A DNA stretch of 44,386 bases, from positions 1 through 44,386 of the forward strand of contig NW_021835065.1 of assembly GCF_006345805.1 (NCBI RefSeq). The letters are read 5' to 3'. Below the pieces are notes generated by a model. That model was not told the DNA's origin and did no database searches. It saw only the letters and a list, made by a program, of their open reading frames with translations. Positions 37,071-39,608 of the stretch are shown piece after piece (the stretch's first letter is position 1; each line of letters starts with the position of its first letter). This DNA comes from Octopus sinensis (Eukaryota). Made by a program: the position numbers and the translations under genes.

Positions 37071-37599
37071 GTATGAAAAAAAGAAGAAAACAGGGAAGAC
37101 AGCGGCAAAGACCTGACCAGCTGGAACCAGAATGATCATTAGGGGAACAGAAGGGCATGGGTGTCATTAATAGTCAACGCCTGAGAGATGCCACGTAGTG
37201 AGAGGCATTGTTGCATTACTTGGTCTGTTTCTTTGTACAATCGACGTTTCATCTGAGACAATGATTTCGGTGTTGTTTCACTTGATATTGGAGAAGCTAA
37301 ATGCTTTTTTCTTGACATTTTGAATCGGTTTGGACTTTCACTCTCTCTATATATTTGCAGACACAATATTTTGTGCATTCATTGTAAACGGACGTGATAT
37401 ATCATGCACTCATCATATTGTTTATGTCTAGAAATTATGAAATAATTAGCTTCACATGAACAAACTTGTTACATACTCACAAACACATACACACGCACAC
37501 ACACACACATGTATATTTTCTCTTTTACTGCGGCCATGCTGGAGCACTGCCTTTAGTCGAGCAACTCGACCCCAGGACTTATTCTATGTATACATATAT

Positions 37600-37771
37600 A
37601 GGCGCAGGAGTGGCTGTGTTGTAAGTAGCCTGCTTACCAACCTCAAAGCTCCTGGTTCAGTTCCACTGCGTGTCACTTTGGGCAAGTGTCTTCTACTATA
37701 TACTCGGGCTGACCAAAGCCTTGTGAGTGGAATTGGTAGACGGAAACTGAAAGAAGCCCGTCATATATATG

Positions 37772-37810
<39 letters not shown>

Positions 37811-37972: not shown

Positions 37973-38014
37973 TATATATATATATACTTTATTTAAAGCA
38001 GCAGAAAATTCAAC

Positions 38015-38061
38015 AAAACCTGTTACTCTGAGTTTCCCGTTGCCGTTCATCGGACAGTTTT
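38015..38061 (-). ncRNA. Minimal hammerhead motif, left-arm copy (core CCGATGA)
   Basis: AAAACTGT CCGATGA ACG-GCAA-CGG GAAA CTC-A-GAG TA ACAGGTTTT. Confidence 0.55.
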
Positions 38062-38069
38062 TGCTAGAA

Positions 38070-38115
38070 AAAACCGTCTGATGAACGGCAACGGGAAACT
38101 CAGAGTAACAGTTTT
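38070..38115 (+). ncRNA. Minimal type I hammerhead motif
   Basis: AAAACCGT CTGATGA ACG-GCAA-CGG GAAA CTC-A-GAG TA ACAGTTTT; GUA site after 38107; first stem II pair is A.G. Confidence 0.72.
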
Positions 38116-38488
38116 GTTGAATTTTCTGCTGCTTTAAATAAAGCATATTACTCTACCACTGGTATTTGAGTACTCTTTTTTCCACCTTGTTTCATATTTA
38201 TGTGTTTATTCCGGTATATATATATATATATGTATATGTATTTGTGTATGTATATACATATATGTATGTGTGTGTGTAAGAATATTCCTATATATATGAA
38301 TGTGTGTAGTAATGGAAATAGATTTACAAACAAAAGGTGCGCTGAGCTGTGTGGGTGAGGCTAGAAAATGAGATGGGGGTAAGAACGCTTTAAACCAGAA
38401 CCCAATGAGCAGAGAAAAAACAAGAAGCACCACCCCATTCGTACCTCCATTTGTGTGTCTTTTCACACACACACACACACACTCTGCT

Positions 38489-38532
<44 letters not shown>

Positions 38533-38615
38533 CATTTTATGTAAAAGGTTCTTTGCTCTCTATTGATGCTTCCTTCTTGGATTGAGCGGAAATATACAGG
38601 TATTAATATATACAT

Positions 38616-38865
38616 GACGAGAGGCAAAAACCTCGAAACTATAGTCCGTACGTATCACTTAGGTTTTCGAGAGGGGATGACCTCCCTTTGCGAATATCAG
38701 AAGAGCACAGAAAGTGTGTCTAAAGCCAGCTGGAGACGATGATCTCCTGGGGCTAAAAGCTTCAGTAACACCCACCCCCAGTGGCTAGCCACATTGCGAT
38801 GGCTGGTACACTTTACGTTTACAACTCGGTTACTGTTTACATCTCGTTCGGAGATTTATTAATGC
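38616..38865 (+). mobile_element. 250-bp HHR-bearing insert with 12-bp TSD; candidate circularly permuted retrozyme monomer
   Basis: TSD TAATATATACAT at 38604-38615 and 38866-38877; starts (T)GACGA GAGG-CAAAAA-CCTC GAAA CTATAG TC CGT and ends ...GATTTATTAATGC. Confidence 0.72.
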
Positions 38866-38938
38866 TAATATATACATTCTTTCATACATAATGCATACAT
38901 GCAAACGCACGTGTGTATATACATACATACATACATTA

Positions 38939-39102
38939 GGCGTAGGAGTGGCTGTGTGGTAAGTAGCTTGCTTACAAACCACATGGTTCCGGGTTCAGTC
39001 CCACTGCGTGGCAACTTGGGTAAGTGTCTTATACTATAGCCTCGGGCCGACCAAAGCCTTGTGAGTGGATTTGGTAGACGGAAACTGAAAGAAGCCCGTC
39101 GT
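38939..39102 (+). mobile_element. SINE family A 5' half, followed by a family B tail fragment (39119-39225)
   Basis: Near-consensus head to GAAGCCCGTCG; then AGTACCAGTTACGCACT...TGTCTGTCCTTGTTTG. Confidence 0.88.
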
Positions 39103-39608
39103 ATATATATATATATTTAGTACCAGTTACCAGTTACGCACTAGCGTTGATGTAATCGATTTAATCGCTTTGTCTGTCCTTGTTTGTTCCTTTTTTGTTT
39201 GTTCCTCAGCGAGCATTTAAGAAATATGTATGTATGTATGTATATGGAAAGCGGACGTTAATTGATAAGGAAGGTATATATATATACATATGTCTAGATA
39301 TGGATTTTACGGCTCGTCAAATAACAACTGGCTTTGCCAAAGTCCCTATATTTTAAAATAACCAGATCAGATATTGGATTCCTAACTACGTGAAAACTAT
39401 TTCTCATTAAACAAAAAAAAAAAAAAAAAAGCAGAAGAAAAATCTCAGAAAAATAAAAGAAATAATTTATTACGATTTAAAATCCCATTTTCATGCTGGT
39501 TGATTTTTCATAGCATTTTTATTTCTCCTTATTGATCAAATTATTTAGTTATAACGTTTGAGATATTTTTGAGCGCCAGATTTTTATCCTTTTTTTATAT
39601 TGTAAATA

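Follow-up and report, generated by a model that had tools for sequence, protein, structure and literature searches.

A dead hammerhead insertion in Octopus sinensis belongs to a retrozyme-like family that very probably travels as a Penelope passenger and hosts a site-specific LINE

The window analysed here is a stretch of 44,386 nucleotides of Octopus sinensis DNA, and within it lies a short insertion to which a sequence-only reading had drawn attention. As that reading described, exact 12-bp direct repeats enclose a 250-nt segment, which opens with a partial hammerhead running from U4 to a GUC triplet that closes at 38646 and which carries several hairpins in its interior. Its GC content was said to exceed that of the flanks; this holds in direction, but the contrast is small (47% versus 43–44% in the 250 bases on either side). 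The insertion is the only piece of its family in the window and consists of a single arm, which terminates at the long or “tail” end, one of two 3′ ends described below. Its features are collected in Table 1.

Table 1. Features of the insertion, in window coordinates
Feature	Position	Strand	Basis or remark
Left target-site duplication, 12 bp	38604-38615	+	Final T common to element start
Right target-site duplication, 12 bp	38866-38877	+	Initial T common to element end
5′-truncated 354-nt hammerhead unit, unit positions 104-354	38615-38866	+	94.8% identity to natural full unit, 251 nt
3′ part of type I hammerhead, U4 to C17	38615-38646	+	Sequence, family covariation
Stem II of partial hammerhead	38621-38634	+	Between U4-A9 and G12-A14
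Palindromic minimal stem III	38638-38645	+	Between G12-A14 and C17
Orphaned 3′ strand of long stem I	38647-38696	+	Folds of natural full units
Conserved hairpin region, to short 3′ end site (unit ~308)	38697-38819	+	Short site serves half of arms
Penelope-type “tail” between two fixed 3′ end sites, ~44-46 nt	38820-38866	+	Arm-end counts

The locus is a dead, 5′-truncated copy of a 354-nt hammerhead retroelement family. It lacks 103 nt of the unit, including core position 3 and the 5′ strand of stem I, the segment with which the orphaned strand pairs in full units. In the copy's own context position 3 is an A and the stem I of the family is unable to form; with both parts lost, the copy cannot form the ribozyme. 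Rfam at gathering score accordingly gave no match in the window, as is to be expected when only half of a ribozyme is left. The 12-bp repeat is a genuine target-site duplication, 12–13 bp being the modal length in the family. The start of the copy in the middle of the core reflects a mild, family-wide clustering of 5′ breakpoints within or just before the core (11/87 arms at unit positions 100–111), which is partly a sampling effect. Two further repeats were observed nearby. A near-perfect palindrome of 167 bp (37982–38148, arms 92–97% complementary) is likely to represent a small element of foldback or MITE-like type, and two 180-bp copies of a dispersed, perhaps SINE-like repeat (88% identical) lie on either side of the region at 37599–37778 and 38937–39116.

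A similarity search of the octopus's own genome returned 2859 candidates, of which 40 were scored, giving 79 matches that are mostly 89–96% identical. Genome-wide, a 24-mer from the 3′ half of the unit has at least 583 exact matches (control 0) and a relaxed core pattern at least 363 (control 6), both counts being lower bounds on family size. In a natural four-unit array the cores are spaced 354 nt apart, which is the unit length. Units 1, 2 and 3 of the four-unit array at L031:634-2050 differ by 4–6% and carry loop II variants of different subfamilies, while units 3 and 4 are the same. The family has no coding body, and inserted LINEs are the only non-unit sequence that its copies have as a common neighbour. 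Older relatives, down to ~60% identity, align across the whole region compared. Three distant hammerhead unit families (L239-L260) show C at position 4, a U3-A8 pair and longer palindromic variants of stem III. The octopus units thus combine a type I hammerhead per unit, a 354-nt unit in tandem, the absence of coding sequence, a GC content under 50% (as in the window copy) and target-site duplications longer than 4 bp, and on these sequence features we classify the family as a non-coding, dimer-type non-LTR retrozyme with a type I hammerhead. It is apparently undescribed. No report of a cephalopod retrozyme was found in the literature searched, which included the accessible parts of PMC10886601 and PMC6765202 and did not extend to subscription journals or Repbase; with Repbase and Dfam outside the search, the family may already be catalogued there.

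At the family level, the ribozyme is real as judged by covariation. Among 23 diverse copies (those of 29 loci tried in which the core was found by pattern), 93.5% of the cells are paired and 15 of the 18 pairs, covering stems I, II and III plus the 3-8 pair, vary on both sides. This score was reached by none of 500 shuffles and slid controls pair at 25–50%; the scores are inflated by relatedness, and the 3-8 pair was left unforced. That pair is C-G in nine copies, U-A in nine and U-G in five. When natural full units were folded, the true 6-bp stem I formed at a probability of 0.6–1.0 in two of three, the stem of the third being mutated, and the folding z-scores ranged from -4.4 to -5.8 (versus 60 shuffles). 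The cores of the young family differ at one position: position 3 is U in 91/94 and C in none, and this U3 faces G8. A wobble at the 3-8 position is expected to weaken hammerhead cleavage. In the young subfamilies, where U3 faces G8 and the pair at 10.1-11.1 is often G-U, cleavage may therefore be weak. A census of 27 cores, which covers other stem III loop variants only, the main family having escaped the search pattern, found the palindrome retained in 20 and C3 together with A8 in none. Published work, cited here and below for its accessible parts, describes a short palindromic stem III as a mark of dimer-cleaving hammerheads and U3-A8 as a known covariation of Penelope repeat hammerheads (PMC4209133, PMC3088659). 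One paper mentions a naturally occurring core that has U3...G8 along with two inserted bases, and the literature searched yielded none testing U3-G8 in a hammerhead of this setting.

The way in which the family is inserted points to a Penelope-type enzyme. We mapped 127 insertions and removed three as duplicates or halves, leaving 124 insertions with 199 arms; this sample is not random, as the insertions were chosen by similarity or motif, lie mostly on the three largest contigs and represent about 124 of several hundred. The arms have two fixed 3′ ends ~44 nt apart: 87 end at unit positions 303–311 (short), 86 at 348–354 (tail) and 26 elsewhere. Both sites are retained in families that are ~60% identical, including the three distant ones mentioned above. 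Divergent, that is inverted, arms were found in 69 of the 124 insertions. In 55 inverted insertions the outer ends are canonical on both sides; of these, 53 combine one short end with one tail, two have two tails and none has two short ends (P ~4e-14 for the mixed pairing under an even split). This near-absolute pairing suggests that one dimer employs both start sites. Outside microsatellites, 30 of 36 inverted insertions have a target-site duplication of 10–16 bp, and in 21 of the 36 it measures 12–13 bp; the 35 duplications of 10–16 bp are 82% AT. TA/TAA microsatellites contain 20 of 56 inverted insertions and 26 of 103 insertions in all. Single-arm insertions outside microsatellites mostly lack a duplication, one of 12–14 bp being present in 5/41 only, while random flank pairs gave 3–5 bp duplications in 214/300. 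Inverted 5′-truncated arms, partial tandems, a one-sided tail and AT-rich or microsatellite targets are the characters of Penelope-type integration. The structure of the insertions therefore directly supports the view that a Penelope element drives the mobilisation of this metazoan retrozyme.

Unit length, ribozyme fold, the two fixed 3′ ends, the inverted arms and the AT-rich 12–13-bp duplications are all observed in the sequence. The window locus is very probably an inactive, 5′-truncated insertion of a 354-nt retrozyme that is non-autonomous and was moved in trans by the reverse transcriptase/GIY-YIG protein of a Penelope-like element. Such a protein would cut both DNA strands 12–13 nt apart and begin cDNA synthesis inside the RNA at either of two sites ~44 nt apart. 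Where both strands prime, each would take one site and the two cDNAs would join head to head. At the window locus, the cDNA from the tail site alone would have survived, halting 32 nt beyond the cleavage site and inside the core. The template was something other than a self-cleaved linear monomer. Some points stand against this explanation. The search for a partner was negative: no open reading frame for reverse transcriptase plus GIY-YIG is attached to the unit among the 124 insertions, and two Penelope-type families (8 and 19 copies) were without similarity to the unit or a convincing hammerhead. Duplications are scarce in single arms, the tail slightly exceeds the published 30–40 bp, and most copies are dispersed and shorter than two units, where classic retrozymes form long tandem arrays. 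Moreover, U3-G8 cleavage may be weak, and the only Penelope element so far assayed in vitro prefers unprocessed RNA. As to the two candidate partners, a large young Penelope-type family was rejected because its 780-nt terminal repeats are unrelated to the unit (8 copies), and an old one that adjoins one copy of the unit because it is degenerate and unrelated (19 copies). The young family (L262-L269) had 20183 first-look candidates and has open reading frames of up to ~1000 codons; a pattern scan of it found no convincing hammerhead.

The sequence-only reading had proposed instead that the insert derives from a 251-nt circular RNA, of which it would be exactly one permuted turn, and that joining its ends restores a canonical core. 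An exact 12-bp duplication does flank a 250-nt insert, its far end offers a C plus a few pairable bases, and the mild clustering of 5′ ends inside the core (those 11 of 87 arms) might be read in the same sense. The unit, however, is 354 nt long, so the window copy is less than one turn. In a fold of the insert as a 251-nt circle, each of the three pairs suggested for stem I had P=0.003. The rejoining was to restore C3, a base found in 0/94 cores of the subfamily. In the 28 de-duplicated loci of the own-genome search, the true 5′ strand of stem I precedes 24 of 26 cores, the exceptions being the window copy and one inversion junction; other copies thus carry a different, conserved upstream sequence, which pairs with the 3′ strand as a 6+5-bp stem I, an outcome that the sequence-only reading had itself named as refuting its proposal. 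The end of the unit continues into the 103-nt segment in 77 read-through contexts (those near locus edges possibly counted twice) and directly into the core in none. The junction 14-mer occurs three times in the 2.7-Gb genome, versus twice for the reversed control, and never within the family (0/3); the only C-preceded core genome-wide takes its C from unrelated flanking DNA, and no such joint was seen among the contigs of four presumed RNA runs. We therefore reject the 251-nt circle, to which we assign practically no probability. If a circle exists it would be of 354 nt, and the window locus offers no evidence for one. The broader part of the proposal is supported, namely that the insert is a non-coding, retroposed element of metazoan retrozyme type that bears a hammerhead and was copied by a reverse transcriptase not its own. 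It could also be that an autonomous Penelope element carries the unit as its pseudo-LTR and that the copies seen are all short 3′ fragments of that element: all the integration traits are Penelope traits, Penelope elements are heavily 5′-truncated (PMC8557442), and the insertions examined are a part of several hundred. We consider this improbable, as arms longer than one unit run into another unit and never into a coding body (the 77 contexts), and no common neighbour other than the inserted LINEs is seen.

A cleaved linear monomer as RNA template would halt cDNA synthesis at unit position 136, and it is contradicted by the arm starts: 5′ ends do not pile up near the cleavage site (1/87 arms at 131–141), which is crossed by 32 of 54 arms found via the 3′ motif alone. 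The template is thus either a circle or an uncleaved multimer. At least two cleavage sites are spanned by 10 of the 173 canonical-ended arms, the largest covering four units. We lean towards a 354-nt circle that is read round, since multi-unit arms recur although long source arrays are rare and since the ribozyme is conserved. It is also possible, if in our view less probable, that the same enzyme copies the same family from uncleaved linear tandem transcripts or from RNAs joined by template jumping, with a largely silent ribozyme in the young copies and no circle. The presence of U3-G8 in 91 of the 94 young-family cores agrees with this, as does the finding that the main substrate of the anole Penelope protein is unprocessed RNA (PMC11167929). 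Furthermore, units within one insertion (median difference 2.6%) are no closer to each other than to the nearest outside copy (2.0%; typical outside copy 9%; 126 pairs), and one four-unit array mixes subfamily variants. By the typical between-locus divergence, which none of the 126 pairs exceeded, the arms or units inside one insertion always belong to one subfamily. Against a linear template, we infer that a length-restoring step would be needed, because source arrays reach at most four units among the 124 insertions, yet multi-unit arms recur; moreover, the ribozyme pairs, the 3-8 pair and the palindromic stem III are retained across deep subfamilies. Of the data sets listed as containing the unit, none is recorded as RNA. 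The contigs of the four presumed RNA runs cover 30, 30, 23 and 30 of 30 full-unit bins, and such contigs are blind to ends, strand and circles; we count them neither in favour of expression nor against it.

The family also hosts a LINE. Several units are interrupted near positions 76–95, and one of them (L069:3069-8768) holds a full-length two-ORF LINE between duplicated target bases. By Pfam, its ORF1 carries zf-CCHC and its ORF2 Exo_endo_phos (AP endonuclease), RVT_1 and zf-RVT, and the nearest Atlas cluster bears the name LINE-1 ORF2 family; the label Tx1 is our own assumption from domain layout and target specificity. This LINE of L1/Tx1 type has a single, fixed insertion site, which lies upstream of the ribozyme core. 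A search with its 3′ end gave 364 candidates, and the best 30 of these 364 loci were inspected: 26 continue directly into a hammerhead unit, three into a target duplication plus another LINE copy and one into unrelated sequence. The core follows at a constant distance in 19 of the 26, ~31 nt past the polyadenylation signal. Sharing of one target type by 26/30 copies exceeds the 20% of flanks set for target specificity (PMC4494074). The 3′ ends of the 26 copies are 97.7% identical (96.0–99.0), whereas their targets are 83.3% identical (64.4–95.9), which indicates independent insertions; on the same figures, we rejected the alternative that LINE and unit move as one co-mobilised element. The target duplication is ~14–17 bp (five pairs of 5′ junctions compared), and the LINE often stands in tandem (L069, L202-L231).

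A second element of 1.7 kb (L162:6428-8050; L164; L232-L261) codes only for an ORF1-like protein, which is 32% identical to the ORF1 of the LINE over 204 residues. As for the LINE, the query was a copy inside a unit and only the closest matches were inspected: in 21 of 30 copies the sequence next downstream is a hammerhead unit belonging to one of four families, and in the remaining nine it is a duplication plus another copy (three), a short piece of a unit (one) or unrelated DNA (five). The core lies 33–37 nt downstream in the 18 copies measured. In five of six pairs of target families, the element ends are 89–91% identical versus 60–67% for the targets, and co-mobilisation of element and unit between target families was rejected on these grounds. 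Within one target family the values are 93–97% for the element and 88–95% for the target, and there the two may have been co-mobilised. One array has two consecutive units that each host a different inserted copy, ~80% alike. The literature searched, with the same inclusions and boundaries as above, revealed no hammerhead or Penelope-derived target of a LINE; the LINE family itself may already be catalogued in Repbase or Dfam.

Tentatively, these elements could form a parasite chain of three levels, in which a Penelope enzyme spreads a circular retrozyme and an L1/Tx1-type LINE together with its ORF1-only satellite homes to a site ~30–37 nt upstream of the core in retrozyme families that are only ~60% identical. 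If so, no fixed DNA sequence would define the target; its position or structure would, or else endonucleases that have diverged closely in step with it. The ribozyme would stay intact downstream and might process the end of the LINE transcript.

As candidates for the enzyme source that spreads metazoan retrozymes, Penelope elements are supported in the literature by co-occurrence and repeat homology. Judged from its insertions, the octopus family in all probability works like a Penelope passenger. A non-coding ribozyme unit with the Penelope integration signature across many insertions provides exact candidate start sites for an in vitro reaction. Moreover, with its natural series of C3-G8, U3-A8 and U3-G8 cores it can be tested directly whether spread depends on cleavage. 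The LINE has a type of target for which the literature searched gave no precedent; the window locus itself is only a remnant.

Mussel and axolotl retrozymes of 330–390 nt are circular in vivo, and Penelope elements have been proposed as their mobilisers (PMC7229834). The unit size falls among those described for metazoan retrozymes, with 350–390 nt in mussel and 331/353 nt in axolotl, and retrozymes are known from coral as well (PMC7229834; bioRxiv 10.64898/2026.07.22.740005). The 2026 preprint (bioRxiv 10.64898/2026.07.22.740005) reports co-occurrence and repeat homology in vertebrates and calls the life-cycle evidence limited. The octopus family resembles these metazoan non-LTR retrozymes in its short non-coding unit with one type I hammerhead, GC content under 50%, tandem copies, long target-site duplications and a minimal palindromic stem III fit for dimer cleavage. 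It differs in that most copies are dispersed partial or inverted insertions instead of long arrays, and in the U3-G8 core of its young subfamily. In the accessible parts of the retrozyme papers, the case for Penelope consists of co-occurrence and terminal-repeat homology, and the two-end and inversion signature counted here is not reported.

This signature is familiar from Penelope elements themselves. Craig et al. list partial tandems, an inverted 5′-truncated copy and a one-sided tail of 30–40 bp as Penelope traits (PMC8557442). Working with purified anole protein, Frangieh et al. found cutting and extension of both strands on AT-rich DNA; two internal start sites on the RNA, mainly unprocessed, bound the tail, and a dimer is predicted (PMC11167929). 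The octopus insertions share with the endonuclease-bearing Penelope/Poseidon and Neptune elements the partial tandems, the inverted 5′-truncated arm, the one-sided tail, the two internal start sites, the AT-rich or microsatellite targets, a hammerhead in the repeat and its U3-A8 covariation (PMC8557442, PMC11167929, PMC4209133), whereas their unit has no open reading frame and their tail is ~44–46 nt. Also comparable are Chlamys elements such as MRC1, which are likewise non-autonomous, of Penelope type and inserted head to tail in multiple copies, but are green algal, mostly without canonical hammerheads and have a 3′ sequence in common with a known autonomous family (PMC8557442). Known Tx1-clade LINEs target piggyBac (Tx1L), Mariner (Tx1-Mar), LTR elements, U2 snRNA and microsatellites (PMC4494074). 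The octopus LINE is like the target-specific members of this clade in its zinc-knuckle ORF1, its ORF2 with AP endonuclease and reverse transcriptase, its single site in a mobile element and its tandems. It differs from those described there in having a hammerhead retroelement as its target and an ORF1-only relative at the equivalent position of targets that are ~60% identical.
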